A DNA stretch of 15,939 nucleotides from Moraxellaceae bacterium. GTDB taxonomy: Bacteria; Pseudomonadota; Gammaproteobacteria; Pseudomonadales; Moraxellaceae. Below the pieces are notes generated by a model, which worked only from the letters and a program-made list of their open reading frames with translations, made no database searches and had not been told where the DNA came from. The stretch is taken from positions 1-15,939 of the forward strand of contig JBBKWW010000039.1 of NCBI GenBank assembly GCA_037969155.1, read 5' to 3'. Shown piece by piece: positions 1-15,939 of this stretch. Made by a program: the position numbers and the translations under genes. Each line of letters opens with the position of its first letter. Position 1 is the first letter of the stretch.

Positions 1-104
1 CTGCCAAAAGGCAACCAAACCACTGACGCAATTGTTGACAATTTCAATCTACTCGTCCGTTGCAGTTTAGTAAATCAAAATCCAGATAAAAAGAGTGTAA
101 TCCC

Positions 105-761: not shown

Positions 762-793
762 ACTCGGTATCATGCCAATGGCATTGGGGGTTG

Positions 794-821
794 TTGTCCC
801 TTTCATCTCATGTTGTATATG
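794..821 (+). promoter_or_regulatory. Putative sigma70-like promoter for the thiolase gene: TTGTCC, 16 nt spacer, TATATG with TG immediately upstream. An AAGGAA Shine-Dalgarno lies at 831-836.
   Basis: Hexamers and spacing were read directly from the sequence. No other support. Confidence 0.25.
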
Positions 822-843
822 TCATTTTTTAAGGAATTAATTC

Positions 844-2022
844 ATGACCGAATCTGTCGTTATCGTCAATGGTGCACGCACCGCAATGGGTGGTTTTCAA
901 GGCTCATTGGCCGCTGTCAGCGCACCTGAGCTGGGTGCAACTGTCATTAAAGAAGCGGTGAGCCGTGCAGGTCTTGCCCCAACTGACGTGCAAGAAGTCA
1001 TTATGGGCTGCGTCTTACCTGCTGGCCTAAAGCAAGGCCCTGCCCGTCAAGCCATGCGTCAAGCAGGTCTGCCAGACAGCACCAGCGCGGTCACTATTAA
1101 CAAGCTGTGTGGCTCTGGCATGAAGGCGGTGATGCAAGCCACCGACATGCTCAAAGCTGAAAGCGCCGATATTGTGGTGGCAGGTGGCATGGAATCGATG
1201 ACCAACGCACCGTACCTGTTACCCAAAGCCCGTGGCGGCTTCCGCATGGGTCATGGCGAAATCAAAGATCATATGTTCTTAGATGGTCTAGAAGATGCTG
1301 AGACCGGTCGTCTGATGGGCTCATTTGCACAGGACATGGCCAATACTAAGGGCTATACCCGTGAGCAAATGGATGATTTCGCGATTCGCTCACTCAAGCG
1401 GGCGCAAACTGCGATTAACAATGGTTGGTTTAAAGACGAAATTACGCCAGTGGTGGTCAAAGGTCGTGGTGGCGATGTTTCCGTCGAGGTAGACGAACAA
1501 CCAGCCAATGCCAAGCTGGACAAGATCCCTACCCTGCGTCCAGCTTTTGCCAAAGACGGTACCATTACTGCCGCCAACGCCAGCTCGATCTCAGACGGTG
1601 CTTCCGCCTTGGTCTTGATGCGCGAATCGACTGCAACAGCTAAAGGCTTAGCGCCATTGGCTCGCATCGTGGCGACTGCTAGCAATAGCCAACACCCCAG
1701 CGAGTTCACCATTGCACCTGTTGGGGCAATCCAGAAAATTTTGAATCAAACTGGCTGGACTGCTGAATCAGTCGATTTGTGGGAAATCAACGAAGCGTTT
1801 GCGATGGTAACGATGGCTGCCATCGACAAGTACAGCTTGGATGACGAAAAAGTCAACATTCATGGCGGTGCCTGTGCGCTTGGCCATCCCGTTGGTTCGA
1901 CTGGCTCGCGGATTATCTTGTCGCTGATCCACGCGCTTAAACGCACCGGTGGCAAAAAAGGCATTGCCGCGCTGTGTATCGGCGGCGGTGAAGCCACTGC
2001 GGTCGCGATTGAACTGATCTAA
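844..2022 (+). CDS. Acetyl-CoA C-acetyltransferase (thiolase II, AtoB/PhaA/YqeF-like).
   Basis: 392 aa. The N-terminal VIVNGARTAMGGFQG, the active-site region NKLCGSGMKAV (nucleophilic Cys) and the C-terminal GGACALGHPVGSTGSRI...ALCIGGGEATAVAIE (catalytic His/Cys) are hallmark thiolase motifs. ATG start with AAGGAA Shine-Dalgarno. Confidence 0.9.
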   Translation: MTESVVIVNGARTAMGGFQGSLAAVSAPELGATVIKEAVSRAGLAPTDVQEVIMGCVLPAGLKQGPARQAMRQAGLPDSTSAVTINKLCGSGMKAVMQATDMLKAESADIVVAGGMESMTNAPYLLPKARGGFRMGHGEIKDHMFLDGLEDAETGRLMGSFAQDMANTKGYTREQMDDFAIRSLKRAQTAINNGWFKDEITPVVVKGRGGDVSVEVDEQPANAKLDKIPTLRPAFAKDGTITAANASSISDGASALVLMRESTATAKGLAPLARIVATASNSQHPSEFTIAPVGAIQKILNQTGWTAESVDLWEINEAFAMVTMAAIDKYSLDDEKVNIHGGACALGHPVGSTGSRIILSLIHALKRTGGKKGIAALCIGGGEATAVAIELI

Positions 2023-2037
2023 GGTTGGTGTGCCACA

Positions 2038-2068
2038 CAAAACGGGACGTTATGTCCCGTTTTCTTTA
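2038..2068 (+). terminator. Rho-independent terminator after the thiolase gene: AAACGGGAC / GTTAT / GTCCCGTTT stem-loop followed by TTCTTT.
   Basis: A perfect 9-bp GC-containing stem, a 5-nt loop and a T-rich tail sit 16 nt after the stop codon. Confidence 0.6.
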
Positions 2069-2168
2069 GTGCTCAAGCATTGGAAAACCTTTAATCGTCT
2101 CAATGAACCCAAATCCACGCTCATCATTCCATTCCGCCAAGCGACCTTTAGTTTTGACCATCAATGAT

Positions 2169-2936
2169 CTATCCCACACTCAGCTTCTTTAATACTTCCG
2201 CCACAGCAACCAACCCCATACTCGCCGTCATCACCGTCGCCGAACCATAACCGCCACACTGCAAGCCGCCCGTCGTACAAGTCTCCGGCTGATATGGCTG
2301 CTCAATCGAATAGACACAAGTCACGCCAAATTTTTCTTTCGGTTTTTTACACATATTGTAATCCTGCCGCAGTGTGCGGCGGATTTTTGCCAGCATTGGA
2401 TCATATTCAGTCTTGGATAAATCGGCGACCCGAATACTGAGTGGATCAGTCTTGCCACCGGCACTGCCCGACACCACCAGCGGGATTTTATGCCACCGAC
2501 AATATAAAATCAGTGCAGTCTTGGCTTTGACATCATCAATACAGTCGAGAACCACATCAGGTGCTGTCGCCAACAGTTGCGCCACATTATCCACTGTCAA
2601 AAAATCATCGATGATATTCAGCTTAATGCGGGGGTTAATGCCACGAATCCGCTCGGCCATCGCTTGGGTTTTTTCCAGACCCAACGTATCGGTTAAGGCG
2701 GGCAACTGTCGATTGATATTCGAAGCCACCAAAATATCCATATCCACCAAGGTTATTTCAGCAATCGCTGTGCGTGCTAGTGCCTCCGCTGCCCAACTGC
2801 CGACCCCACCGATACCAATCACCATCACATGCGCTTGCTCAAAATCCGTTAAGCGTGCTGTACCATACACACGCTCAATCCCTGCAAAACGACGTGTATA
2901 CTCATCACTGCTTGGCGCTAGGTCAGCTGATGTCAT
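2169..2936 (-). CDS. tcdA: tRNA threonylcarbamoyladenosine (t6A) dehydratase TcdA/CsdL. ThiF/MoeB E1-like family.
   Basis: 255 aa. VMVIGIGGVGSWAAEALARTAIAEITLVDMD (Rossmann GxGxxG), NINRQLPAL, MAERIRGINP, IPLVVSGSAGGKTDP and the C-terminal GGYGSATVMTASMGLVAVAEVLKKL match my recollection of E. coli TcdA essentially block for block. Confidence 0.85.
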   Translation of the reverse strand: MTSADLAPSSDEYTRRFAGIERVYGTARLTDFEQAHVMVIGIGGVGSWAAEALARTAIAEITLVDMDILVASNINRQLPALTDTLGLEKTQAMAERIRGINPRIKLNIIDDFLTVDNVAQLLATAPDVVLDCIDDVKAKTALILYCRWHKIPLVVSGSAGGKTDPLSIRVADLSKTEYDPMLAKIRRTLRQDYNMCKKPKEKFGVTCVYSIEQPYQPETCTTGGLQCGGYGSATVMTASMGLVAVAEVLKKLSVG

Positions 2937-2955
2937 GGCGATTCCAAAGTAAAGT

Positions 2956-2970
2956 TAGCAAGGCTTGCTA
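2956..2970. promoter_or_regulatory. Perfect 15-bp palindrome TAGCAAGGCTTGCTA about 20 bp upstream of the tcdA start codon. Candidate operator.
   Basis: Self-complementary around a central G. It lies in the tcdA / yqiJ-like divergent intergenic region. Confidence 0.2.
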
Positions 2971-3246
2971 TTGTGCCAAAATAGTCGAATCCCATGCAGT
3001 CTTTCACGCAAAAGACCGCGAATAACTTGCTAAACCCAGCAAAAATACTTTATAAATTAACCGTTGCAAAAAACAGACAAAGCCAGACAAAAAGCAGCTT
3101 GACTACGCTATAGTGGTGTACAAGATTTTATTCGGCATGCCTGTATGGCTGATGCGGTATCTCGCGATACAATCCACTGATTGAACAGGATGCCTGAACA
3201 ATATCAGCCAACGCATCCATATACCGTCAAAGCTGAGGAGCATAAC

Positions 3247-3885
3247 ATGACTATTTTTCTCGCTAACATCCTCGCCTTTCCAACCATTATTTTTTCGATA
3301 TTACTCAGTGTTGCTGTGCTGTACTGGCTGATTTCGCTCACTGGTCTACTCGGATCAGATCTGGATCTGGATACCGGCGATGGTTGGTTAGATTTTGGGG
3401 GGCTGATGACCACTTTAGGACTCAAAGGCGTCCCCCTGCCGCTGCTCTTAACGCTGGTATTGCTGTGGGCTTGGCTGACCACCTATTCGGTGCAAGTGCT
3501 CTTCGCAACGTGGCTGACGGGCGTAATCGGGATTGTGGTCAGTTGTGTCTTGATTCCTGTTGCACTACTGCTCGGGCTGGTGCTGAGTGCTTTACTGGTG
3601 CGGCCATTTCACTCACTACTCGACGAATCGCAACAGCCGACCCAGACCCGCATTCTCGGCTGTGTCTGTAATGTGACTTCACCGACGGTGGATCAGCACA
3701 ATGGGCGTGCTGAAGCGCATTTAGATGGCGCACATTTGATCTTACAAATCCGCAGCAGTACACCACTGACTCGCGGTAGCCGAGCGGTCTTTATCGAATA
3801 TATTGCCGAAAAAAACCTGTATTGGGTTGTGCCTGAAGCCGAATTTCTGGCAGGATCAATCCAGAAAATCTCAATGAAAGATTAA
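3247..3885 (+). CDS. yqiJ: YqiJ/NfeD-like inner-membrane protein (DUF1449-like): N-terminal transmembrane helices plus a C-terminal OB-fold beta domain. Partner of the downstream flotillin.
   Basis: There are at least three hydrophobic helices (FLANILAFPTIIFSILLSVAVLYWLI, VPLPLLLTLVLLWAWL, IGIVVSCVLIPVALLLGLVLSALLV). These are followed by a soluble ~90-aa C-terminal domain (ILGCVCNVTSP...GAHLILQIRS...AVFIEY) of NfeD type. It sits immediately upstream of an SPFH/flotillin gene, as in E. coli yqiJK. The start was chosen at the ATG with GAGGAG 7 nt upstream; the ORF is open from the TTG at 3181. Confidence 0.55.
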   Translation: MTIFLANILAFPTIIFSILLSVAVLYWLISLTGLLGSDLDLDTGDGWLDFGGLMTTLGLKGVPLPLLLTLVLLWAWLTTYSVQVLFATWLTGVIGIVVSCVLIPVALLLGLVLSALLVRPFHSLLDESQQPTQTRILGCVCNVTSPTVDQHNGRAEAHLDGAHLILQIRSSTPLTRGSRAVFIEYIAEKNLYWVVPEAEFLAGSIQKISMKD

Positions 3886-3953
3886 TAGGGCATTGAGGAT
3901 GCTCACAACTGTGATTATTCCTCACTCATAGTACAGCTTAGGAGAGCGAACAC

Positions 3954-6119
3954 ATGACACATTGGTTCATCTTGGCGATCAGCGCAATTGCGGTGATTTT
4001 GATCGTCTTATTGGGCATGCTACTGCTGATTAAGATTTTTTATCGCAAAATTGACCAAGGCCAAGCCTTGATTAAAAATGACACGTCCAGCACCCCGAAA
4101 GTCTACTTTACTGGTGCGATGATTCTGCCCGTAATTCATCGGGCTGAGATCATGAAAATCTCAGTGATCACCCTCGAAATTAATCGAATGGGCAAAGAAG
4201 GCCTGATCTGCCGCGACAATTTACGCGCTGATATTAGCGTGGCATTTTATCTGCGGGTTAATGAAACCGCTGATGATGTGCTGCGCGTGGCCAAATCAGT
4301 TGGCGTGACGCGTGCCTCTGATCGGGATGCGGTCAGTGAGTTATTTAACTCTAAATTCAGTGAAGCCCTGAAAACGGTCGGTAAAAAACTCGAATTTATG
4401 CAGCTGTTTGAGGAGCGTCAGGCATTTCGGGATGCGATTGTCGCCACCATTGGGCAAGATCTGAATGGCTATGTGCTTGAAGATGTCGCCATCGACTACT
4501 TAGAGCAGACCCCAAAAAGCTCACTCGATCCGAATAACATCCTCGACTCTGAAGGGATTCGGCGGATTACTGAAATTACCGCCAAACACAATATCGAAAC
4601 CAACCGCTTAGAGCGTGATCAGGCACTAGAAATTCAGCGCAAAAACGTCTCTGCACGTGAAGCGGGTCTGGAGCTTGAACGCAGCCAAACCGATGCAGAA
4701 GCACGACAACGCCGCGAAATTGACACCTTAAAAGCGCGTGAAACCTCAGCCACCGAGCAAGTGCAGCAAGAAGAACGCGGCAAAATCGAAGCAGCACGCA
4801 TCAAGACGGAAGAAGACGTCGCGATTGCCGAAGAAAATAAACAACGCCAAATCGAACTGGCTGGCAAAGCCCGCGAGCGAGCGATTCAGATTGAAGACGT
4901 GCGTATCCGCCAAGCCCGCGAACTCGAAGACGTCAATCGTCAACGTGCGGTCGAAGTCGAACGCATTAACATGGAAAAAGAGCTGGAAGGTGAGCGCAAA
5001 GAAATTGCGGAAATCACCAGTCAGCGTATCGCAGTCGAACGCGGGGTCGCTGAAGAAGAAGAGAACATCAAAGATGTGCGTAACCGTTCGGATGCTGAGC
5101 GTAAAAAACTGGTTGCGATTACTGCGGCACAAGCGACGGCTGAAGAACACAAAATCAAACAAGTCAAAGCAGCTGAAGCACAGTTTGAGCAGTCAAAGTT
5201 TGAAGCGGATGAAGTGTTGGTACGTGCTCAGGCTGAATTCGATGCCGCCGAGAAAAAAGCCGCCGCTGAGAAAAAACAAGCCGAAGGCCAACAAGCGCTG
5301 GCTGCTGCAAATGGCCTAGCCGCTGCGCAAGTGCAAGAAGCCAACGCCAACGCCGAAAAAGCCGCGGGCTTGGCACAAGCCGACGTCAAGCTGGCCATGG
5401 CCAAAGCACAAGAAGAAACCGGTATGGCCGATGTGCGGGTACTCAACAATCGCCTGCAAGTCGAGGCTGACGGGCAAGAAAAACTTGGCTCTGCTAAGGC
5501 TAAAGCACGCGAAGCGATGGCCTTGGCGGATAAAGAAGCGGGGCTGGCAGAAGCACAAGTGTTGCAACAACGCCTACTCGCAGAAGCTGACGGAGAAGAA
5601 AAACTTGGCGTTGCTAAAGCTAAAGCTCGCGAAGCGATGGCGGCTGCGGATAAAGAAGCGGGACTGGCAGAAGCCTTAGTGATGGAAAAACGGCTGTTTG
5701 CTGAAGCAGATGGTGAGGAACGCTTGGGACTGGCGAAAGCCAAAACCCGCGAAGCCCTGCTAGTCGCTGATGCCAATGGCCTACTGGCCAAACTGAAAAC
5801 CTACGAAGATCTATCAGCAGATGCACGTTCGTTTGAAGAATTCCGGATGGGCTTAGAGTTGCAAGAGAAACAAATCTTGGGACAACTAGAAGCACAACAG
5901 GTGATTGCACAAGAAAATGCCAAAGTGATGGCGGCGGCATTGCAAAATGCTAAGTTTGAATTGATCGGTGGCGATGCCAGCATCTTCGAAAAATTCACTA
6001 CTGGCATGAGTTATGGCAAAGCAGTAGAAGGGGCGCTGTCTAAGTCGCCACAACTACAAGCCACTTTAGCCGCGATTGCTAGTCGGGTGGCACAGTCTTC
6101 AACCGACTCAGCAAGCTAA
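3954..6119 (+). CDS. yqiK: Flotillin-like SPFH/band-7 protein (YqiK/FloT-like) with a long Glu/Ala-rich coiled-coil C-terminal region.
   Basis: 721 aa. It has an N-terminal TM helix (WFILAISAIAVILIVLLGMLLLI). The SPFH core follows (KVYFTGAMILPVIHRAEIMKISVITLEINRMGKEGLICRDNLRADISVAFYLRV...). After that comes about 450 aa of heptad-like E/A/K/R-rich sequence. AGGAGA Shine-Dalgarno before the ATG. Confidence 0.85.
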   Translation: MTHWFILAISAIAVILIVLLGMLLLIKIFYRKIDQGQALIKNDTSSTPKVYFTGAMILPVIHRAEIMKISVITLEINRMGKEGLICRDNLRADISVAFYLRVNETADDVLRVAKSVGVTRASDRDAVSELFNSKFSEALKTVGKKLEFMQLFEERQAFRDAIVATIGQDLNGYVLEDVAIDYLEQTPKSSLDPNNILDSEGIRRITEITAKHNIETNRLERDQALEIQRKNVSAREAGLELERSQTDAEARQRREIDTLKARETSATEQVQQEERGKIEAARIKTEEDVAIAEENKQRQIELAGKARERAIQIEDVRIRQARELEDVNRQRAVEVERINMEKELEGERKEIAEITSQRIAVERGVAEEEENIKDVRNRSDAERKKLVAITAAQATAEEHKIKQVKAAEAQFEQSKFEADEVLVRAQAEFDAAEKKAAAEKKQAEGQQALAAANGLAAAQVQEANANAEKAAGLAQADVKLAMAKAQEETGMADVRVLNNRLQVEADGQEKLGSAKAKAREAMALADKEAGLAEAQVLQQRLLAEADGEEKLGVAKAKAREAMAAADKEAGLAEALVMEKRLFAEADGEERLGLAKAKTREALLVADANGLLAKLKTYEDLSADARSFEEFRMGLELQEKQILGQLEAQQVIAQENAKVMAAALQNAKFELIGGDASIFEKFTTGMSYGKAVEGALSKSPQLQATLAAIASRVAQSSTDSAS
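5439..5798 (+). repeat. Three in-frame tandem copies of a 120-nt (40-aa) unit inside the flotillin coiled-coil. A degenerate fourth copy lies upstream.
   Basis: The three units align residue for residue: VLNNRLQVEADGQEKLGSAKAKAREAMALADKEAGLAEAQ, VLQQRLLAEADGEEKLGVAKAKAREAMAAADKEAGLAEAL and VMEKRLFAEADGEERLGLAKAKTREALLVADANGLLAKL. The underlying DNA units are at 5439-5558, 5559-5678 and 5679-5798. The repeat also generates spurious ORFs in other frames (4738..5319, 5431..5679, 5228..5791 minus). Confidence 0.8.
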
Positions 6120-6151
6120 TCTGGCCTCGTGTAGCATGCTGAATCAGCACA

Positions 6152-6179
6152 CATCAAGGGCAGATTTCTGCCCTTGATG
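6152..6179 (+). terminator. Strong hairpin (12-bp perfect stem CATCAAGGGCAG / loop ATTT / CTGCCCTTGATG) between the flotillin gene and the giant ORF, with no U-tract. Attenuator, processing site or weak terminator.
   Basis: Inverted repeat seen directly. It is followed by CCGATTGCAGC, which is not T-rich. Confidence 0.4.
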
Positions 6180-6231
6180 CCGATTGCAGCACAAAACGCC
6201 AGAGACACCGCCACACTGATGGAACGCTCAT

Positions 6232-9200
6232 ATGTCAACAGATCATAACCAACTTGAACAGATCGTCCGTGAAGGCTCTGCCTTTGACACCATTCAACGC
6301 CGTTTGCAGACACAAGGCGAGCAATTACGCCACTCGATTAACGACCTAAACACCGAACGCACCGAGACTTTTGGCAGTGCCAACATGGCGATTTTGGGTC
6401 GCTCACGGGTGCGCACCGAACAAAATGGCGTCGCACGTGACGTGGTGCAGCTGGGCACACACCTGTTATTTGGCTTTAATCTCCAGCTGGGGCTGCGTAA
6501 AAATCTCAATGCCGATGATATTTTTGTGTTGTATCAACTCGACGACGCCAACGGTGAGTTTGAACTGACCGCACACAGCAATGCAGGCACGTTTTTGCAT
6601 GACCCAGTATTTTTGCGCGATTTTAATGAACTCCAACAATATTATAGCAATGCATTCTTAAGCCAACTGGTCTGCATGAGTGGCATGCTGCTTGCCGTAT
6701 TTCAGATCGGCGAAAAAGTCACGGATGTGCGGGTGTTTCGCTGGGAACTGTATCCGAATGGCAGCGTCAATCGCTATATCGATAATCGTGGCGAACGCGA
6801 GCTAAAATTTCCAGATCGGTTTGGCTTTAAATGGATCACGGCCACCCGCGAAATGCAGGTACAAGGCCGTCAGCCACACTTGAACATTTTAGATACGATT
6901 TTTGTCGATAATTTGCGCGGTGATATCACGTTTAAAATCGAAAACAACACGGCAACGGGTCAAGGTATTTTTGCTGATCCAGTCGATATCGACTCGCAGT
7001 CACTCGATGATGGCAGCTTTGAATATGCGGATTTGGGCGCATTAATTTTAGTGCGTATTTTACCCTTTACCGAAAAAACATGGCGTTACTACATTTTTAA
7101 CCGTGATTTACAAACTGTACGGCGAGTCGATGAGCTGGCCGGTTCAGTGGTTGCGCTACCCGAAAATCATGGGGTGATTTTTCCAGCAGGCTTTTATCTC
7201 AATAGCGGTGAGCTAAAGACATATGAGATTGCTGCCGAGGATTTTCGGTTTTTACGCAGCATTCGCGCACCGAATGGCGAAGATGTGCTGTTTATCTTTT
7301 TTGCACAAAAAACAGGGCATGTTCTGCTCTATCGTTATAATTTAATTAATAAAAGCACTGACACTCCACTGATCGGACATGGCTATGCGCTGCACAGCAG
7401 TGGCCGACTGGTGATCTTTCATGCCGAAGGTGAGCCGACGTTGGTGCATCCGCTACAACTGTGGCAAACGCCATTTATGACGGATACGGTACATGCTGAA
7501 CAGCAACAATCCAATGACAGCGTACTGGGCAAAATCGGCAATCCTGAACTGGTTCGCGGTATTGCAGAGCTGAACAGCATCACCAAACTGATTGAACAGC
7601 CGACTGCTTCTGAGCGGCATTTCAATAGTTTGATTCGACAAATTGACCGCACATTGGATCAGTATTTTTGGCTGAGCGAAGTGCATTTTGAAGCATTTAA
7701 TCAACAGCTGGTGGCCGCGCGTGGCACAGCGGAACTGATGATTGATGAGTACGAAAAGGTGCAAGCGATTCGGCAACAGTCCAATCAGGCGATTGAGCAA
7801 ACCGCACAACAACAAGCACAACTGCTGCGCGACCTAAAGCCCAAACAATGGAACGCGCCAGATCAGTTTGTGGGTTACCTGAAAAAACTACGCGATCATC
7901 ACGGCCAACTGATGAGCCTAAAGGATCGGCGTTATATTGATACGACTCGCCTTGAGCAACTGCAACAGGCGCTCAAAACCGCGCAAGATCAGCTGACCGT
8001 GCAGACGTTTGATTTTTTGGCATCTGAAGCGGCACTCCAAGGCTATCGCAATACGCTATCCGAACTGGCCAGCCAAGTCACTACCGCGCAAACCCGTGAT
8101 GCACTGAGCACACTGGTGGCGCAATATCGTGAACTGACGCTTGGGCTCGATATGATCCAAAGCATGTTGGCCTCGATGAGTGGCGATAACACCACACAAC
8201 AGACTCAGATCGCCGAAAACATCTCCAGTATCTATGCCACGATCAATCAGCAACGCGCCGAAGCCGAAATCCGGCTGCGCGAACAAGGCAGTGCCGAGGC
8301 ACGGGCGCAGTTTACCGCAAGGATTCGACTGTATGAACAAAGCCTTGCCAATGGCATCGGCACGCTCAGCGCCCCCGATGATTGCGATGGCTTACTGGCT
8401 CGTATGCTGGATCAACTGCAAGAACTCGAAAGCCAATTTAGCGAGTTTGATGATTTTTTACTGTTGATCTTAGAGCAACGCGACAGCACGCAAGACAGTA
8501 TCGAAGCACGACGCTTACAGCTACAAGAACAACGACAACGCCGTATCAACACCTTAAGCGACGCGAATAGCCGCATTCTGATCAATATCAAACAACGCAG
8601 CGAACGCTTTGCCGAACTGGCCGAATTGCATGCGTTTTTTGCCGGTGATGCGATGGTGGCCAAAGTGCGCCAAATGGCACAGCAACTGCGCGACATCGGC
8701 GCAAGTCTGGAGGCCGATACCGCCGAAGGCCAATTGCGTGCTGCGCAAGATGCGGCGATGCGCAGCGTGCGTGATCGTGCCGATATTTTTGAGGATGGCG
8801 GCAATCTGATTCGGCTAGGTCGGCATCGCTTTAGTGTCAATCAGCAACAACTGGATCTGACCTTAATTCCGCGCGATGGCAAGCTGATGCTGCACCTGAC
8901 GGGCACGCAGTTTTATGAACCGCTGGAGGATCCACGACTCGCCGTATTGCAGCAGTATTGGAACATTCAAACACCATCTGAATCCGAACAGGTCTATCGT
9001 GCCGAGTATTTGGCCTATCTGATCCTGCAACAACTGAGTAGTCGCCCACAATTGCCGTTTAATCTGGCGGATCAAGCCGCGCTGACCGACTATATTCGGC
9101 AGTTTGCCTCACCACGCTATCGAGAAGGCTACGAAAAAGGCATTCATGATGTCGATGCTGCCAAAATCGTCAGTGCGCTGTGGACCGCACAACAACAGGC

Positions 9201-11670
9201 AGGGCTGCTCCGTTTCTCGCCGACCGCACGCGCGATGGCAATGCTGTTTTGGCAAGCACTGACCCAACAACCGAACTGCCAAACTGCCCGTAGCTTACAG
9301 GCGCGTGCCCAGTCGGCGGGTAGCTTGCAGCGGATTCTCGGCAGTGAGCAACTGTTACAGCGCTTGACCGAAGAAATTCAGCCTGCCCTATCCAGCTTTA
9401 TCGATGCCCAGCAACTGCGTGCCAATACCGCCCAAACCCAACAAGCCGCAGCGTACTTGATTCGACAACTCGCCGACCCAGTGGCCAGCCAAGATGTCCG
9501 CTTCGTCAGCACGCAATATGCGCAACAACAACGACAAGCCTTCCAACAGGCTGCACAGCAACAGGGCTATCAGGCCGAGCTACAACAGGCCATTCAGCAA
9601 GCCGGTCAAAATTATGGCAAAGCATGGGCAGTGGCTGACACATGGCTGACGGCGTTTTTGCAAAAACATGAAAGTAACAATCCGGCGCAACAGCAGCACT
9701 ATCTGCCCGAAACTATTGCACTGCTGCTCACCCCCGAACTGCCGCATCAGGCACAGTCAGTCGAACTGTCGTTTGTGATTGAAGGTTTAATCGGTCAGCA
9801 TCCGCGTTTAAATGGCCAACAACTGTCGATTCAATTGGATGATTTTTTTGAGCGTTTACAACAGCATGAACAGGTGGTGATCACGGGTTGGCAGCAACTG
9901 CAACAGCTGCGACACGAGATTTTGCAGCAGCAACGCGAGCGGCTGCGCTTGAGTGAATACACCGCCAAACCGCTATCATCATTTGTGCGCAATAAGCTAA
10001 TTAGCGAAAGTTATTTGCCATTGATCGGTGACAATCTGGCCAAACAAATGGGCACTGTCGGCGAAAATCGACGCACCGATCAGACGGGCCTACTGATGAT
10101 GATCTCGCCGCCTGGTTATGGTAAAACCACCCTGATGGAGTATGTTGCTGATCGTTTAGGCTTGATTTTTATGAAAATCAACTGCCCCAGCCTTGGCCAT
10201 GATGTGACCTCACTCGATCCTGAGCAAGCCCACCATTCCACCGCAAAATCCGAACTGACCAAACTGAATCTGGCCTTAGAAATGGGCAACAACGTGATGC
10301 TGTATCTGGATGACATTCAGCATACGCATCCTGAGTTTTTACAAAAATTCATCTCCTTATGTGATGGTACACGGCGGATTGAAGGGGTTTGGCGTGGCAA
10401 AAGCAAAACCTACGACATGCGCGGCAAGCGCTTTTGTATTGCGATGGCAGGTAATCCGTACACCGAAAGCGGTGAAGTGTTTAAGATTCCTGACATGCTC
10501 GCCAACCGCGCCGATATTTATAACTTAGGCGATGTACTCAGCGGCATGGAACAGGTGTTTGCACTGTCGTATATCGAAAACGCGATCAGTTCGAATGCCA
10601 TGATTGCACCGATAGCGACCCGTGGCATGGATGATTTTTATCGTTTTGTTGATCTCGCCAATGGCCGCGACGTGCCGAGTACCGAGTTTGATTACGACTA
10701 TAGCGCAGCGGAACGGCAAGACATCACCAAGGTCATGCAAAACCTGTTTAAAGTACGCCAGACTGTGCTTCGGGTGAATCAAGAATACATCGCATCGAGT
10801 GCGCAAGCCGATCAGTATCGCACTGAGCCGAGTTTTCGCTTGCAAGGCAGCTATCGCAACATGAACCGCTTGGCCGAAAAAATCTCACCGATCATGACCG
10901 ACGCTGAAATCGAACGGCTACTCGACGATCACTATGTGGGTGAAGCACAATTGCTGACGCAAGGTGCAGAAGAAAACCTGCTCAAGCTTAAATCCATGCG
11001 CGGCACCTTGAACGCCGAGGAGCAAACCCGCTGGACACAGATCACCAGCGAGTTTCAACGCCGCCAGCAGATGGGCGGCGACCAAGACACCGGCGAAAAA
11101 GTGGTACGCCAGTTGGTATTTATCAGCGAGGGCTTACAACAACTGCACAGCATCAGCAATCAGCACAGCGAACGACAACTGACTCAGCAAGATGCGCAGT
11201 TTGGTCGCATCGCTGACGGTCTATCTGGCTTGCAAAACAGCCAGCGCGAACTGACCGAACAACGCCACAATCAACAGCGCGACTTGGCCAGCCAACAGCT
11301 ACGCTTAGAACAGACACGCCAACAACAACAGAACGATACGCTGAGTGGCTTGGCGGCGCAATTGATCCAGCAACTGCAACAGCTTGATCTAAAACCGCAA
11401 GTGCATATACAGATTGAAGAACCACGCAGTGTCAGTGAGCTGCTGAAACAAATGTCGAGCCTACTCGCGCAAGTGCTAGGTAGTTTAAATCCAAAGGATG
11501 ATCAGGCGGCACAGACCAAGGCCATCAGCGATGCCCTGCAAACGGGTCAAAGCCAGACCGTGCAACTGCTCCGCCAGCTGCGCATGCTGATGGTGCGCCT
11601 AGAAGGACAAGTCCGCCAAAGCAACCTGCAACAGGCGCAATTACAGCCGCCGTCTGACTCGCAAACTTAA
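6232..11670 (+). CDS. Giant multidomain protein (1812 aa). It has an N-terminal globular domain (about 1-480) and a long Gln/Leu-rich predicted coiled-coil region (about 480-1250). A MoxR/dynein-related (AAA_5-like) AAA+ ATPase core sits at about aa 1280-1480. The C-terminal tail is Gln-rich. Function unknown.
   Basis: It is a single 5.4-kb ORF with no competing long ORFs on either strand. Walker A is ISPPGYGKTTL (nt 10108-10140). Walker B is VMLYLDDIQH (nt about 10294-10323). The following RRIEG...GKRFCIAMAGNPYTESGEVFKIPDMLANRADIY segment matches the MoxR/AAA_5 pattern (DEInR...ATQNP.E..G.Y.LPEA.LDRF). The central and C-terminal regions have extended Q-rich heptad-like sequence (QQQRQAFQQAAQQQGYQAELQQAIQQ, LRLEQTRQQQQN). 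Confidence 0.8.
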   Translation: MSTDHNQLEQIVREGSAFDTIQRRLQTQGEQLRHSINDLNTERTETFGSANMAILGRSRVRTEQNGVARDVVQLGTHLLFGFNLQLGLRKNLNADDIFVLYQLDDANGEFELTAHSNAGTFLHDPVFLRDFNELQQYYSNAFLSQLVCMSGMLLAVFQIGEKVTDVRVFRWELYPNGSVNRYIDNRGERELKFPDRFGFKWITATREMQVQGRQPHLNILDTIFVDNLRGDITFKIENNTATGQGIFADPVDIDSQSLDDGSFEYADLGALILVRILPFTEKTWRYYIFNRDLQTVRRVDELAGSVVALPENHGVIFPAGFYLNSGELKTYEIAAEDFRFLRSIRAPNGEDVLFIFFAQKTGHVLLYRYNLINKSTDTPLIGHGYALHSSGRLVIFHAEGEPTLVHPLQLWQTPFMTDTVHAEQQQSNDSVLGKIGNPELVRGIAELNSITKLIEQPTASERHFNSLIRQIDRTLDQYFWLSEVHFEAFNQQLVAARGTAELMIDEYEKVQAIRQQSNQAIEQTAQQQAQLLRDLKPKQWNAPDQFVGYLKKLRDHHGQLMSLKDRRYIDTTRLEQLQQALKTAQDQLTVQTFDFLASEAALQGYRNTLSELASQVTTAQTRDALSTLVAQYRELTLGLDMIQSMLASMSGDNTTQQTQIAENISSIYATINQQRAEAEIRLREQGSAEARAQFTARIRLYEQSLANGIGTLSAPDDCDGLLARMLDQLQELESQFSEFDDFLLLILEQRDSTQDSIEARRLQLQEQRQRRINTLSDANSRILINIKQRSERFAELAELHAFFAGDAMVAKVRQMAQQLRDIGASLEADTAEGQLRAAQDAAMRSVRDRADIFEDGGNLIRLGRHRFSVNQQQLDLTLIPRDGKLMLHLTGTQFYEPLEDPRLAVLQQYWNIQTPSESEQVYRAEYLAYLILQQLSSRPQLPFNLADQAALTDYIRQFASPRYREGYEKGIHDVDAAKIVSALWTAQQQAGLLRFSPTARAMAMLFWQALTQQPNCQTARSLQARAQSAGSLQRILGSEQLLQRLTEEIQPALSSFIDAQQLRANTAQTQQAAAYLIRQLADPVASQDVRFVSTQYAQQQRQAFQQAAQQQGYQAELQQAIQQAGQNYGKAWAVADTWLTAFLQKHESNNPAQQQHYLPETIALLLTPELPHQAQSVELSFVIEGLIGQHPRLNGQQLSIQLDDFFERLQQHEQVVITGWQQLQQLRHEILQQQRERLRLSEYTAKPLSSFVRNKLISESYLPLIGDNLAKQMGTVGENRRTDQTGLLMMISPPGYGKTTLMEYVADRLGLIFMKINCPSLGHDVTSLDPEQAHHSTAKSELTKLNLALEMGNNVMLYLDDIQHTHPEFLQKFISLCDGTRRIEGVWRGKSKTYDMRGKRFCIAMAGNPYTESGEVFKIPDMLANRADIYNLGDVLSGMEQVFALSYIENAISSNAMIAPIATRGMDDFYRFVDLANGRDVPSTEFDYDYSAAERQDITKVMQNLFKVRQTVLRVNQEYIASSAQADQYRTEPSFRLQGSYRNMNRLAEKISPIMTDAEIERLLDDHYVGEAQLLTQGAEENLLKLKSMRGTLNAEEQTRWTQITSEFQRRQQMGGDQDTGEKVVRQLVFISEGLQQLHSISNQHSERQLTQQDAQFGRIADGLSGLQNSQRELTEQRHNQQRDLASQQLRLEQTRQQQQNDTLSGLAAQLIQQLQQLDLKPQVHIQIEEPRSVSELLKQMSSLLAQVLGSLNPKDDQAAQTKAISDALQTGQSQTVQLLRQLRMLMVRLEGQVRQSNLQQAQLQPPSDSQT

Positions 11671-11683
11671 ACTGGATATCGGC

Positions 11684-12406
11684 ATGAGCGCAGCAAAACA
11701 GATTTTATGGGTGGAGGATGACCCCGCGATTGCTGAACCGATGTGCTATGCCTTGCAACGCGAAGGCTGGCAGGTGCACTGGCAAACCACCGCACAAGGT
11801 GCATTAGAGCTGCTCAGTACACAGGTCTTTGACTGTCTGATTTTGGACGTCGGTTTGCCCGATATGGATGGTTTTGATCTGTGTCGGCGGATTCGCCAAA
11901 CCTGCCAAACGCCGCTGCTGTTTTTAACCGCACGCAATGACGAAATCGAACGCATCATCGGCCTCGAAATCGGCGCGGATGATTACTGCGCCAAGCCGTT
12001 TAGCCCGCGTGAAATCATCTCGCGGATTAAGGCGATTTGGCGACGGATGCAGCCCAGCAGCAGCGAGCCAATCCATAGCACGCCGCCTACAATACCAGCA
12101 GCCACTGACCTGCACACATGGGGCGCGTGGCGTTATCAGCCGCACAGTTATCAGTTGTTTTATCACCAGCAACTACTGAATTTAACCCGCTATGAACTGG
12201 GCTTAATCTTGCTGTTCCTACAACAGCCTGAGCGGGTGTTTAGCCGTGAACAACTGATGCAACAGGTCTGGCAACATCCCGACCACAGCCTTGAGCGCAC
12301 CGTCGATAGCCACATCAAAACCCTGCGCCAAAAACTACACGCCATCCATCCAAGCGATCCGATTGTGACCCATCGTGGTTTGGGCTATAGCTTACTGCGC
12401 GACTAA
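11684..12406 (+). CDS. creB: OmpR/PhoB-family response regulator, CreB-like.
   Basis: The receiver domain has VEDD, the phospho-acceptor region LILDVGLPDMDGFDLCR and LFLTARNDEIERIIGLEIGADDYCAKPFSPREI. The C-terminal winged helix has LTRYE...VFSREQLMQQVW...RTVDSHIKTLRQKLHAIHP...THRGLGYSL. These blocks closely parallel E. coli CreB as I recall it. The start is 13 nt after the giant ORF's stop. Confidence 0.65.
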   Translation: MSAAKQILWVEDDPAIAEPMCYALQREGWQVHWQTTAQGALELLSTQVFDCLILDVGLPDMDGFDLCRRIRQTCQTPLLFLTARNDEIERIIGLEIGADDYCAKPFSPREIISRIKAIWRRMQPSSSEPIHSTPPTIPAATDLHTWGAWRYQPHSYQLFYHQQLLNLTRYELGLILLFLQQPERVFSREQLMQQVWQHPDHSLERTVDSHIKTLRQKLHAIHPSDPIVTHRGLGYSLLRD

Positions 12407-12459
12407 GACCCAATCAGTGCGATACTGGTGATCCATAGCGGCGGGTAGATTAGGCAAGC

Positions 12460-13926
12460 ATGTCAATTTTTGTGCGAATTTGGGCAGCGTTTACGCTGGT
12501 CTTGCTGATCGGTAGTCTCCTGACCACGCATGCGCTACAACAACAAATCAAACCCAACATGCGCCAAGTGGTCGAGGATACGTTAGCGGACAATGCCAAT
12601 CTAATCGCTGGATTGGTTGCCGATGATCTACGCGATGGGCGTTTGCAAAACGTGGCGTTTGACCAAAAAATCCAAGCTGCACTCAGCCGTGATCTGAATG
12701 CCAAAATCCGCAGCATGTCAAAAACAAATGTCCAGCAAACCCTATATATCACTGATGCACAAGGCAGGGTGCGCTACGACTCGAGTGGCCACGCAACTGG
12801 CCAAGACTACTCACGCTGGAATGACGTGTATCTAACCCTACGCGGCCAATACGGCGCACGCTCAACGCGCAGCGATCCAAATGACGAGAACAGCTCGGTG
12901 ATGTATATTGCTGCACCGATCATTGATCAGGGTCAAATCATCGGCGTGGTCAGTGTCGGCAAAGCAGGGCGCACCGTACAGCCGTATATCGAAAATGCCC
13001 AGCGCGAGATGCTGCAACAAGCTGCGCTGATGGTATTAATTTCACTGTTGCTGTGTGGCGTAGTCGCATGGTGGCTACGCCGCAGTATCAACACTGTACG
13101 CCGCTACGCGCTGTCACTGCCTGCGCATGAATTGCCCGCACCGCATTTTTATTCGGCCAGTGAACTGAATGACCTGACCCGTGCCCTGACCCAAATGCGC
13201 AGCCAACTCGAAGACCGCGCCTACATCGAACAAGTGGTACACCATCTGACCCACGAACTCAAAAGCCCACTGACCGCGATCAGTGCCAGTGCTGAATTGC
13301 TACAAGACCCGCTGCCCTTGGTGGATCAGCAGCACTTCGCCGCCAATATCCAACAGCAAACCGAACATCTGCAACAACTGGTTGAGCGGCTACTGATACT
13401 GGTACGCCTAGAGCAACAAGCTGATCAATTCGTATTACAGCCCCACAATTTAAGCCAGCTTGTTGCAAGCTGTATCCAAGCGCGGCAGAGTGTTTTGCGC
13501 AGTCGGCAAGTTCAAATCATCAATACACTGCCCGATCCACTCTGGGTACTGGCTGAGCCATTTTGGTTGGGACAAGCGATTGGTAATCTGCTCGATAACG
13601 CCATCGACTTTACTGCGGCACAAGGCATGATTCGGCTCACTAGTCACCGCACGGGTTTACAACAACAACTGAGTATTGAAAACAACGGTGAACCGATTCC
13701 TGACTATGCGTTGTCACAAGTATTTGATCGGTATTTCTCTTTGCCCAGACCCATGACAGGCCGCAAAAGCAGCGGTATCGGCTTGACTTTAGTCAAAGAA
13801 ATCATGCTACGTCATCAAGGTGCAGTGACGCTGGACAACACACCGAATGGCGTCTGTGCCAGTCTGTGGTTGGCACAAGCAGACCCAAACACCGACCGTC
13901 AAACAACCACTGCGAAATCGTCATAA
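12460..13926 (+). CDS. creC: Sensor histidine kinase with two TM helices flanking a periplasmic domain of about 170 aa. CreC-like.
   Basis: H-box HHLTHELKSPLTAISASAELL, N-box LLDNAIDFT and G-box GIGLTLVKEIM. TM1 is IWAAFTLVLLIGSLLTT and TM2 is AALMVLISLLLCGVVAWWL. It is the partner of the CreB-like regulator, and a creD-like gene lies downstream. Confidence 0.6.
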   Translation: MSIFVRIWAAFTLVLLIGSLLTTHALQQQIKPNMRQVVEDTLADNANLIAGLVADDLRDGRLQNVAFDQKIQAALSRDLNAKIRSMSKTNVQQTLYITDAQGRVRYDSSGHATGQDYSRWNDVYLTLRGQYGARSTRSDPNDENSSVMYIAAPIIDQGQIIGVVSVGKAGRTVQPYIENAQREMLQQAALMVLISLLLCGVVAWWLRRSINTVRRYALSLPAHELPAPHFYSASELNDLTRALTQMRSQLEDRAYIEQVVHHLTHELKSPLTAISASAELLQDPLPLVDQQHFAANIQQQTEHLQQLVERLLILVRLEQQADQFVLQPHNLSQLVASCIQARQSVLRSRQVQIINTLPDPLWVLAEPFWLGQAIGNLLDNAIDFTAAQGMIRLTSHRTGLQQQLSIENNGEPIPDYALSQVFDRYFSLPRPMTGRKSSGIGLTLVKEIMLRHQGAVTLDNTPNGVCASLWLAQADPNTDRQTTTAKSS

Positions 13927-14028
13927 ATCTGTCATGATTTGAGGATAGTGTGATCATATGAACAATAAAAAAAGCAGCGACAATCCAACAATAATTCATC
14001 TCATCATCAGTCAGGAGAACTGTAAATT

Positions 14029-14793
14029 ATGAATATGACTCGTTATCTCAATCATTTTAAAAAACCCATGCTGCCGTCTATTTTTATCGGCATATGGCCA
14101 CTATTCGGACTGTATCTCTGGCTACAAATGGAGAGTCTATTTGCCCTGATCATCGGCAGCTTTTTTGCTGTACTGCACTATCGCAAATGGCGGCGTTACC
14201 AACGTGCGCAATATATTGAACAGTACGCCATGCCGTTGTATCTCTTGCATGATCTGCGCCGAGAGTATCAGCTTGACTCGGTACAACTGCCCATCATCGA
14301 GCGCGGCTTTAAAGACTTTTGCTTAATTCATCTGGAGAAACCCAACCAACTGCACAACATGCCGTCTAAAGCAGTCGATGCACTGTGGCACGCTTTTATC
14401 CTCGACACACGCAGCTATGCGGAGTTTTGTCAGCGTGCCTTTGGCCACATGCTGCATCATCGCCCGTCACTCGACATGCAAGCGTTGTCCAATACCACAC
14501 AGCAAAAATCCTTAAAGGCCACATGGCTTGGCGCGTGCCAACTGGAAAATTTCACCCACACACACGCCGCTCAGTTGCCGTTACAGTTACCCTTGTTATT
14601 TGCCATTGACCAGTACTTGGCGTGGCCGCAAGGCTTGCACTATCAGCTAGATCAACTGCAACACTTACTCAGAGTTCGTGATGCGAGTTCGAGTTGTGGT
14701 GGTGGAAGCTGTGGTGGGACATCCGTTGATATCAGTGATAACAGCAGTTCAGGTGGTGATTCGGGCTGTGGCGGTGGTTGTGGTGGGGATTAA
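14029..14793 (+). CDS. N-terminally membrane-anchored protein. Its conserved-looking core carries a WHxFxLDTxxY motif and several His residues, possibly related to DUF1399 (glycine-rich domain-containing protein-like). It ends in a Cys/Gly-rich C-terminal tail.
   Basis: 254 aa. TM segment: IFIGIWPLFGLYLWLQMESLFALIIGSFFAVL. Core: VDALWHAFILDTRSYAEFCQRAFGHMLHHRP. Tail: SSSCGGGSCGGTSVDISDNSSSGGDSGCGGGCGGD. AGGAGA Shine-Dalgarno 10 nt upstream. Confidence 0.55.
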   Translation: MNMTRYLNHFKKPMLPSIFIGIWPLFGLYLWLQMESLFALIIGSFFAVLHYRKWRRYQRAQYIEQYAMPLYLLHDLRREYQLDSVQLPIIERGFKDFCLIHLEKPNQLHNMPSKAVDALWHAFILDTRSYAEFCQRAFGHMLHHRPSLDMQALSNTTQQKSLKATWLGACQLENFTHTHAAQLPLQLPLLFAIDQYLAWPQGLHYQLDQLQHLLRVRDASSSCGGGSCGGTSVDISDNSSSGGDSGCGGGCGGD

Positions 14794-14886
14794 AAAAGTA
14801 TTTACGTTTTTAGATCTGCGATGACACAACCTGTCCAACTCACTCGGCATACTCAAATCTCTAAACCATCCAGCTAGGAAATCAAC

Positions 14887-15198
14887 ATGTTCACATTTAG
14901 CCACCGACTCAGCGTTTTGTTTGCACTCACTAGCATCATGTTCAGCAGCACCAGCCACGCCGCAGTTACCGAGACCTTTAAACTCACAGCCCCCGTCGAG
15001 TTTTCGGAAGAAGGCACTTATCTGACCACCAATAAGGGCGACTTTGTACTGCAAACCCTCATCATCAATCCACGTGTATTTAACACGATTAAAACCCTAA
15101 AACGTGGCAACTGCTTTAGCGCCACCTCCCCGCAAGGGCTCAGCAGCGCCGAAGGCAGTGACATCAGTAAAGTCAGTAAAATTGCCTGTAAGCGCTAA
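14887..15198 (+). CDS. Small secreted protein of unknown function (103 aa precursor, Sec signal peptide, two Cys).
   Basis: Signal peptide MFTFSHRLSVLFALTSIMFSSTSHA with the predicted cleavage after SHA and AV following. AGGAAA Shine-Dalgarno 7 nt upstream. The mature protein is about 80 aa with Cys near the C-terminus. Confidence 0.5.
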   Translation: MFTFSHRLSVLFALTSIMFSSTSHAAVTETFKLTAPVEFSEEGTYLTTNKGDFVLQTLIINPRVFNTIKTLKRGNCFSATSPQGLSSAEGSDISKVSKIACKR

Positions 15199-15228
15199 GC
15201 CACTTCACACATTTATCGGAGCCTGCAC

Positions 15229-15687
15229 ATGTCAAAATTTATTTTTTCACTGACTGCCGTCACAGCACTTAGCCTGAGCGTCAATGCACAGGCGGCTTGT
15301 CCCAGCGCAGCCAAAACGGTATTTAGCTGTAGCACCACCAATGGCAAAGTGGTCGAAATCTGTGACCTCGGCCAGCATCTCATGTATTCATTTGGCAAAC
15401 CCCGCGCCAAGCCCGAACTCCAGTTTAATCTGGCCAAAACCCGTGCCTATATGTACTTATGGGATGGCAATACTAGCTCTGAATACAATGAGTTGTATTT
15501 ACCGCGTGGCAACACCATCTATCAAGCCTACCACGCCAATCACCGCAATCATGGCGGCACTGAACATGGGATCAAAGTTTTTATCAATCAAAAACAAGTG
15601 GCTGATGTACGCTGCCGTGCGGCCAGTGTGATCGAAAACTTTCAACAGCTTGAGCTACCGCAGATCAGTGGTGACGAACGACTTTAA
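15229..15687 (+). CDS. Secreted protein of unknown function (152 aa precursor, Sec signal peptide, five Cys in the mature part).
   Basis: Signal peptide MSKFIFSLTAVTALSLSVNAQA with cleavage after AQA and A following. GGAG 8 nt upstream. The mature part, ACPSAAKTVFSCSTTNGKVVEICDLG..., suggests disulfide bonding. Confidence 0.55.
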   Translation: MSKFIFSLTAVTALSLSVNAQAACPSAAKTVFSCSTTNGKVVEICDLGQHLMYSFGKPRAKPELQFNLAKTRAYMYLWDGNTSSEYNELYLPRGNTIYQAYHANHRNHGGTEHGIKVFINQKQVADVRCRAASVIENFQQLELPQISGDERL

Positions 15688-15703
15688 TCCATACAAACTT
15701 TAA

Positions 15704-15719
15704 TTCACACAGACTTCAC
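15704..15719 (+). promoter_or_regulatory. Cre-tag direct repeat TTCACacagacTTCAC, the consensus CreB-binding motif, 72 nt upstream of the creD-like start.
   Basis: An exact TTCAC-N6-TTCAC was seen in the sequence. In E. coli, CreBC-regulated promoters including creD carry this tag. Confidence 0.5.
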
Positions 15720-15755
15720 ATACGCCACAAGCGAACCCCATCCAAGCCTCGCACA

Positions 15756-15784
15756 CTCTCCCCATCGACTAGATTTGGGGAGAG
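15756..15784 (+). promoter_or_regulatory. Hairpin CTCTCCCCA / 11-nt loop / TGGGGAGAG whose 3' arm contains the creD Shine-Dalgarno (GGAGAG, 7-8 nt before the ATG). Possible translational control element.
   Basis: A perfect 9-bp inverted repeat was seen directly. The right arm overlaps the ribosome-binding site of the ORF starting at 15791. Confidence 0.3.
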
Positions 15785-15790
15785 ATTGAG

Positions 15791-15939
15791 ATGCAGCGTT
15801 TTCTAAGCTTTAAATTTTTGATCATGGCTGGATTGATTTTTGGCTTTTTAGTGTGTTTTATGTTTATGCGCGGCATCGTGTATGAACGACAGCAATACAG
15901 CCAAAACGTGATTGCCGAAATTGGCCGTGACAGCGTGCG
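15791..15939 (+). CDS. creD: N-terminal fragment of a CreD-like inner membrane protein. It continues beyond the window.
   Basis: Open frame MQRFLSFKFLIMAGLIFGFLVCFMFMRGIVYERQQYSQNVIAEIGRDSV. The TM helix followed by an ...ERxxYxxxV... segment resembles the start of CreD. It sits downstream of creBC and a cre-tag. Confidence 0.45.
   Translation, partial: MQRFLSFKFLIMAGLIFGFLVCFMFMRGIVYERQQYSQNVIAEIGRDSV

Follow-up and report, generated by a model that had tools for sequence, protein, structure and literature searches.

A giant DUF3686-family AAA+ ATPase encoded in a conserved cassette with YqiJ-like and flotillin-like proteins, a candidate remodeller of bacterial membrane scaffolds

The closest described relative of the gene cassette examined here is an operon predicted computationally by Ravi et al. 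(2024, mSystems 9:e00847-23; PMC11237479), which combines a PspA and CesT/Tir pair with YqiJ, a band-7/flotillin protein and a beta-propeller/coiled-coil AAA+ ATPase. In that paper, the three-transmembrane protein of the operon is prototyped by YqiJ/YuaF, a PLD hydrolase is sometimes present, abbreviated operons without the CesT/Tir-PspA pair are called "more widely distributed", and the regulation of PspA homologues that have no dedicated ATPase is raised as a question; a Dokdonia example is given in the supplementary table. We analysed a 15,939-nt stretch of DNA from a Moraxellaceae bacterium (contig JBBKWW010000039.1, positions 1 to 15,939; hereafter the window), in which a giant ATPase of 1812 amino acids (aa) is encoded downstream of a YqiJ-like and a flotillin-like gene. 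The ATPase of the published operon is a DUF3686 (PF12458) protein and the window copy is essentially alike, the difference being that the latter has no adjacent YjfI-PspA pair and lies beside creBC. The idea that such an ATPase serves a membrane scaffold is well supported, but it had already been put forward there as a computational prediction. What the present analysis adds is the MoxR-like fold of the ATPase, its invariant Asp-Asp (DD) Walker B motif, a rhomboid neighbour, and the finding that the name 'DNA repair ATPase' is unsupported; the AAA+ clade, the invariant DD and the rhomboid neighbour are not noted in the passages of PMC11237479 consulted. The literature searched contained no mention of DUF3686 or PF12458, and beyond Ravi et al. 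nothing on the family.

Vps4/CdvC acting on ESCRT-III, together with AAA+ genes linked to PspA/Snf7, offers a functional analogy, in that an ATPase is encoded beside the membrane-remodelling polymer that it would recycle. PspA/IM30 is itself a member of the ESCRT-III superfamily. Vps4, however, is a classic-clade AAA protein with an MIT domain, whereas the giant ATPase is MoxR-like and has flotillin, not PspA, as its invariable partner. At the inner membrane, HflK/HflC-FtsH (cited in PMC13086221) sets a precedent for an SPFH-family cage that works together with an AAA+ machine. There, FtsH is a membrane-anchored classic AAA protease inside a periplasmic-side cage, whereas the giant ATPase is soluble and carries no protease domain, and the bulk of its flotillin partner is cytoplasmic.

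The gene for the giant ATPase is the largest of the window, as had been stated in an earlier reading made from the letters of the window without database searches (the original prediction); it is a single unbroken open reading frame (ORF) with an ATG start at 6232..11670 on the plus strand. That reading also described the protein as an orphan whose architecture could be placed in no characterised family, a description that the searches overturn: residues 32-479 match Pfam DUF3686 at E=6.9e-171 (569.1 bits where the gathering cut-off is 25, with positions 2-448 of the 448-position profile aligned), residues 601-684 match Pfam DUF7902 at E=1.9e-16, homologues of the 1812-aa protein number at least 1513 in a search of 5.8 billion proteins, and the operon is described in PMC11237479. 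The best 120 of these at least 1513 homologues are collinear with the window protein, measure ~1570-1835 aa and come from Marinobacter, Halomonas/Vreelandella, Cellvibrionaceae and others. When residues 1-520 were compared exhaustively by phmmer with 1.84 billion cluster representatives, 670 clusters (50% identity) matched at E<=1e-3, of which 210 also passed E<=1e-30. Homologues of the DUF3686 ATPase occur in Proteobacteria, Bacteroidota, Actinomycetota and Deinococcota, and tblastn on records of plasmids and chromids extends the family to Streptomyces, Nonomuraea, Deinococcus and Hymenobacter. Judged by its sequence, the 1812-aa protein is almost certainly an ordinary orthologue of this family of giant cytoplasmic AAA+ ATPases. 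It has no transmembrane (TM) segment, its sole hydrophobic stretch falling inside predicted beta-strands, and neither a sequence search with the full protein nor a profile of its N-terminal domain found a match in the PDB. The family is thus a catalogued one, and the literature searched contains no experimental study that would give it a characterised role.

The homologues also bear on the possibility, raised in the original prediction, that the ORF consists of separate genes fused by a frameshift or an assembly error. Full-length family members span 1590-2036 aa, collinear full-length homologues are present in more than 70 independent genomes, complete ones included, and the alignment over residues 1-1000 is almost free of gaps. 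Because collinear full-length homologues are found so widely, we rejected the fusion and consider its probability negligible, even though a stand-alone AAA+ part does exist in one Thiomargarita metagenome-assembled genome (MAG). That 628-aa protein (locus L037, 9905-11791) comprises the AAA+ and C-terminal module, 65% identical to the module of the window; it lacks the 1200-aa N-terminal part and any flotillin or YqiJ neighbours, and it follows genes for DUF2066, SNase and an ABC-ATPase. It may be a true short form, or else a chimera within the MAG.

The NfeD/flotillin pair that had been placed upstream of the giant gene was recovered by profile and BLASTP comparison, respectively. The first gene of the cassette (3247..3885, plus strand) encodes a YqiJ-like (DUF1449, short NfeD-type) inner-membrane protein of 212/234 aa with about three hydrophobic segments; the mechanical ORF begins at a TTG at 3181, and the ATG at 3247 agrees with the length of the homologues. 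Its pairwise BLASTP match to E. coli YqiJ is weak (E=0.02), a profile of 32 orthologues aligns to E. coli YqiJ with an hhalign probability of 92% (E=6e-7), and 2 of the 32 orthologues match Pfam YqiJ_N. The second gene (3954..6119, plus strand) encodes a divergent flotillin-family (YqiK-like) protein of 721 aa, which is 26% identical to E. coli YqiK over 488 aa from residue 1 (BLASTP, E=3e-37). Besides a single N-terminal TM segment (aa 1-34), this protein has an SPFH-like region and a long helical region that is rich in Glu/Ala/Lys and contains repeats of 40 aa. Its homologues are named 'flotillin family protein/YqiK', a few of them with PF01145; the two window proteins themselves have no match in Pfam (Band_7 included) and no sequence match in the PDB. 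NCBIfam likewise gave no match for any of the three cassette proteins.

The order of these three genes is conserved far beyond the window. Among 83 loci examined by tblastn with the window proteins, ~65 contain enough upstream DNA, and in ~65/65 of these, all from gamma- and betaproteobacteria, a YqiJ-like gene, a flotillin-like gene and the ATPase gene follow one another on one strand, the YqiJ-like gene lying directly upstream of the flotillin gene in at least 47 loci. The cassette is present in the gammaproteobacterial Marinobacter, Halomonas, Pseudomonas, Stenotrophomonas, Lysobacter, Xanthomonas, Providencia, Xenorhabdus, Gilliamella, Psychrobacter, Methylomonas and Thiotrichaceae, and in the betaproteobacterial Lampropedia, Diaphorobacter and Comamonas. 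Records from other phyla read alike: a Streptomyces record is annotated as a small protein, a flotillin family protein and a DNA repair ATPase; a Deinococcus record has two hypothetical proteins of matching size followed by a giant 'DNA repair protein'; and a Hymenobacter record lists a "molecular chaperone Tir", PspA/IM30, DUF1449, a hypothetical protein at the place of the flotillin and a DNA repair ATPase. The evidence is very strong that the ATPase is functionally linked to the YqiJ/flotillin pair, in at least four phyla.

Additional genes join the cassette in subsets of loci. The commonest extra partner is the pair YjfI (DUF2170, CesT/Tir-like) and YjfJ (PspA/IM30; PspA_IM30 match at E=1.8e-42), which adjoins the cassette in 39 loci and in many genomes extends it upstream; by tblastn the window has a homologue of neither YjfI nor YjfJ, and it carries the abbreviated, three-gene cassette described in PMC11237479. 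In 13 loci a gene for a rhomboid intramembrane protease overlaps the stop codon of the ATPase gene (e.g., L011, 11710-13043), and in 11 loci a PLDc_2 (HKD) gene comes after the rhomboid gene. Rhomboid proteases and PspA act at the membrane, and PLD-family enzymes can be lipases or nucleases. Insertions between the flotillin and ATPase genes were observed in a Lampropedia locus, where an NYN-domain protein and a protein of no recognised family are encoded (L046, 2870-5516), and in a Lysobacteraceae locus, where a DUF389 membrane protein is encoded (L044, 3950-5887). A family member annotated 'DNA repair ATPase' also lies at 96133-97332 of pQBR103 (NC_009444.1), a 425-kb environmental megaplasmid of Pseudomonas fluorescens SBW25, which shows that the cassette can travel on large plasmids.

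Such neighbours and carriers could also be read as those of an anti-phage or conflict system, in which the flotillin/YqiJ proteins would sense a perturbation of the envelope and the ATPase would activate effectors (a PLD-family nuclease/lipase, or the rhomboid). The family is patchily distributed, Proteus and Providencia possessing it and E. coli lacking it at blastn sensitivity (the Providencia AAA+ region has no blastn match in 5,426 complete E. coli genomes); its copies on megaplasmids and chromids, including pQBR103, the McrBC system ~5 kb from the cassette in the closest relative of the window (L001), the downstream PLDc_2 gene in 11 loci, the inserted NYN-domain gene in L046 and the SNase gene beside the short L037 form would all be in keeping with this reading. 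None of the three cassette proteins, however, has a match in PADLOC (E<=0.01), no relatives were found in 2.9 million viral contigs, and the core cassette holds no obvious effector. Moreover, the most frequent extra partners, the PspA/CesT-like pair, point to membrane maintenance, and the flanks in most loci are ordinary housekeeping genes. We therefore regard a conflict system as improbable.

Two further observations concern the flotillin gene and the spacer that follows it. Within the gene, positions 5466-5755 contain a 120-bp (40-aa) tandem repeat of ~2.4 copies, 77-84% matching, whose unit encodes 'AEADGxEKLGxAKAKAREAMAxADKEAGLAEAxV'; this array may account for the variation in length among flotillin homologues (643-733 aa). 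The 112-nt spacer between the flotillin and ATPase genes (6120-6231) folds at -41.9 kcal/mol (z=-3.9 vs shuffles) and includes a stable stem-loop (6152..6179, plus strand) with a stem of ~10-12 bp and no T-tail, which a consensus scan did not call as a terminator. A near-identical hairpin occupies the same position in L001 (9873-9900), a 90%-identical relative. The stem-loop may attenuate read-through or stabilize the upstream mRNA, and in either way may set the flotillin:ATPase ratio.

From its N terminus, the giant protein consists of a helical hairpin, a domain that resembles an irregular beta-propeller, a ~350-aa helical arm, a middle domain, a linker, the AAA+ module, a C-terminal domain and a tail (all on the plus strand). 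An AlphaFold2 (AF2) model of residues 1-520 (pLDDT 85, pTM 0.85) resolves three parts, namely the hairpin (aa 2-47, 6235..6372; helices 2-14 and 16-47), a domain of ~27 beta-strands in roughly seven four-stranded units (aa 53-412, 6388..7467), which forms the core of the DUF3686 match, and a helical bundle (aa 418-519). The ~480-aa N-terminal 'globular domain' of the original prediction can thus be described more specifically. By contrast, its '~800 aa of Gln-rich coiled coil' was an overstatement, of which the part that stands is the helical, partly heptad-periodic arm (aa 418-780, 7483..8571), comprising the AF2 bundle and DUF7902 (8032-8283). Hydrophobic periodicity of 3.5 residues is significant at ~aa 420-760 (z up to 4.4; low Gly/Pro) and recurs in short stretches at aa 1009-1060, 1205-1260 and 1737-1792, and there is none in aa 785-1000 or aa 1065-1200. 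The remainder of the supposed coiled coil divides into a conserved middle domain that is not coiled coil (aa 840-1010, 8749..9261) and a variable Gln-rich linker (aa 1011-1199, 9262..9828; ~21% Gln).

Conservation, measured per region in an alignment of 40 non-redundant homologues, follows the same divisions. Across the N-terminal domain and aa 480-1000, gaps are almost absent and identity is 45-74%, the helical arm having no gaps and 45-65% conservation and the middle domain reaching 70-74% identity in sub-windows, almost gapless; the linker falls to 24-39% identity, with indels. After the lid of the AAA+ module, an all-helical (AF2) C-terminal domain (aa 1478-1640, 10663..11151) is 52-75% conserved and nearly gapless, and is followed by a non-conserved Gln-rich tail (aa 1641-1812, 11152..11667; 19-25% Gln) with 5-15% identity and 27-82% gaps. 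Pfam searches on the separate fragments aa 480-850, 840-1020, 1010-1240, 1480-1660 and 1640-1812 returned DUF7902 and otherwise only noise-level matches.

The AAA+ module (aa 1250-1477, 9979..10662, plus strand), of which there is one per protein, is of the MoxR/AAA_5 type, as originally proposed. Residues 1288-1415 score narrowly above the cut-offs of two Pfam models, AAA (27.9 bits vs 21.2) and AAA_5 (27.0 bits vs 22), and the motifs on which the assignment had been based lie where they had been reported: Walker A SPPGYGKTT at aa 1292-1300 (10105-10131), Walker B MLYLDDIQH at aa 1356-1364 (10297-10323) and MAGNPYTESGEVFKIPDMLANRADIY at aa 1405-1430. The sensor 1 'GNPYT' is encoded at 10441-10464 and the arginine finger 'PDMLANRAD' at 10489-10518, and a beta-hairpin is present between helix 3 and strand 4, in the pre-sensor-1 position. 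The core belongs to the MoxR/AAA_5 (helix-2-insert) group; matches of the AAA+ profile to the PDB (NVL, Rix7, p97 and RuvB, E=0.004-0.05) are at the P-loop level only and do not identify the clade. Members of the MoxR family such as CbbQ, NorQ and RavA are stand-alone proteins of ~270-500 aa with a VWA/MIDAS partner and a DE Walker B, whereas the module discussed here is C-terminal in a protein of 1812 aa, has a DD Walker B and shares ~14% sequence identity with them. The statement that no VWA gene lies nearby was confirmed, in that neither the ORFs of the window nor fragments of the giant protein nor its conserved neighbours gave a match to a VWA/MIDAS domain. Midasin/Rea1 and dynein heavy chains have six concatenated AAA+ modules per chain where the giant ATPase has one, and they differ from it in substrates, partner domains and phyletic range.

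Conservation peaks in the AAA+ core (aa 1241-1440), where identity to the query among the 40 homologues is 79-91%. In 76 divergent cluster representatives that retain the module, SPPGYGKTT, hhhhDDIQH, GNPYT and PDMLxNRAD are nearly invariant, and the DD of Walker B is strictly conserved in 76/76. Since the DD is invariant amid intact catalytic residues in the most constrained region, we read it as the family signature of a selected catalytic site rather than of decay, and ATPase activity is predicted from these motifs. The suggestion that the protein might be a regulatory pseudo-ATPase is weakened by the same pattern. A related possibility is that the DD abolishes hydrolysis and leaves an inert or very slow scaffold or switch, whose nucleotide-bound form would organise flotillin microdomains; a Walker B of hhhhDD rather than the canonical hhhhDE, and long helical arms combined with a propeller, which are typical of scaffolds, would agree with it. 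A decayed site would be expected to drift, however, whereas the DD does not vary among the 76 representatives, the Lys/Thr of Walker A, the Asn of sensor 1 and the arginine finger hardly vary either, and the core is more constrained than any other region, so that an inert scaffold seems to us unlikely.

The name under which the family is filed implies a different function altogether. Pfam describes DUF3686 as an "ATPase involved in DNA repair", and most of the best 120 homologues are called "DNA repair ATPase" by NCBI; the corresponding hypothesis is an ATPase that works on DNA, for example a coiled-coil ATPase like SMC or Rad50. Apart from these database names, the long helical regions are what the protein has in common with such enzymes. 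It differs from them in having a single contiguous MoxR-type AAA+ module, with no split ABC head and no SMC_N or ABC match; no DNA-binding or nuclease domain was detected by Pfam, fragments included, there is no NCBIfam match, and the neighbours encode membrane proteins in all phyla examined. The literature searched gave no link of the family to repair, and we consider this function highly improbable.

The conserved three-gene order, found in ~65/65 loci, makes remodelling of a membrane scaffold, the role envisaged in the original prediction, the best reading of the giant ATPase. Specifically, we suggest that it is an ATP-driven cytoplasmic remodeller of flotillin and/or PspA membrane scaffolds, a proposal to which we would give slightly less than an even chance; taken as a whole, the combination of family, cassette and scaffold-remodelling mechanism is the explanation that we favour, with moderate confidence. 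The oligomeric state that we infer is a ring of AAA+ modules, like that of MoxR-type ATPases, which would bear several long helical arms with beta-propellers at their tips. As substrate, the propellers or arms would engage the coiled-coil dome on the cytoplasmic side of the flotillin/YqiJ assembly, or polymers of PspA recruited to that assembly. ATP binding and hydrolysis in the ring would then move the arms, and the scaffold would be assembled, disassembled or recycled under membrane stress, in a manner analogous to the action of Vps4 on ESCRT-III or of FtsH within HflK/C cages. The topology of the partners fits a direct contact, the flotillin having a single N-terminal TM helix and the ATPase no TM segment.

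Several points weigh against this proposal. Gene linkage indicates a shared process, and neither physical contact nor its direction follows from it; because the window has no PspA pair, any connection to PspA would have to act in trans there. MoxR ATPases normally need a cognate VWA/MIDAS adaptor, which is absent here, and with DD in place of DE in Walker B hydrolysis may be slow, or the site may serve as a nucleotide-dependent switch. The top Foldseek matches of the beta-domain are beta-propellers, with low TM-scores (0.11-0.28) that make this a weak match, and the middle domain (aa 840-1010) has no Pfam match at E<=1, no heptad periodicity and no assigned fold. Finally, no experimental work on any family member was found in the literature searched.

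Downstream of the ATPase gene, creB and creC (11684-13926) are genuine, with scores above the NCBIfam equivalog cut-offs (288 bits vs 273 for CreB, 595 vs 356 for CreC), in agreement with their original identification. The start of creB lies 13 nt past the ATPase stop codon (gap 11671-11683), with no terminator between them, so that in this lineage the cassette and creBC may share a transcript. Among the 83 loci, however, creBC adjoins the cassette only in L001, so that of the proposed yqiJ-yqiK-giant-creBC linkage the first three genes hold together across ~65 loci and in other phyla and the last element does not. Co-regulation by CreBC as a general feature was rejected on this ground, as the linkage is not conserved, and the envelope-stress control through CreBC that had been envisaged is at most a local feature. 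A scan of the window for promoter and terminator consensus sequences gave counts at or below those expected from shuffles and was thus uninformative.

The remaining flanks in Marinobacter and Halomonas differ from those of the window, and in most loci the flanks consist of ordinary housekeeping genes. Upstream on the minus strand, the window encodes a GspH/minor-pilin-like protein with a prepilin methylation motif (105-761), an acetyl-CoA acetyltransferase (thiolase; 844-2022) and TcdA (tRNA t6A cyclase; 2169-2936), which are unrelated housekeeping genes whose synteny is common to L001 only. Downstream of creC lie a 254-aa ORF (14029-14793) with a weak Acyl_transf_3 match only, whose L001 homologue carries PF27765 (UCP032817-like) and is followed there by creD, and a 152-aa ORF (15229-15687) of no confident family. 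In L001 an McrBC restriction system (20931-24142) is found ~5.5 kb downstream of the cassette, past creBC and creD; the window ends short of the corresponding position.

We know of no bacterial factor that uses ATP to build or recycle flotillin/SPFH assemblies, and a giant ATPase tied to the flotillin pair in at least four phyla is an obvious candidate for such a factor. DUF3686 ATPases may be, though this is a tentative and on balance doubtful generalization, the energy-consuming regulators still missing for bacterial flotillin (SPFH) scaffolds, acting through a propeller-armed ring of MoxR-like modules with an unusual Asp-Asp catalytic site. If this were true, the family would be the bacterial equivalent, at membrane microdomains, of Vps4 or NSF, by which flotillin/YqiJ cages and associated PspA polymers would be assembled on, or stripped from, the inner membrane. 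The window itself adds nothing unique; it is of value because it points to a conserved, uncharacterised family that goes under the wrong name ('DNA repair ATPase') and that occurs in tractable organisms, including Proteus mirabilis, Stenotrophomonas maltophilia, Pseudomonas and Marinobacter.

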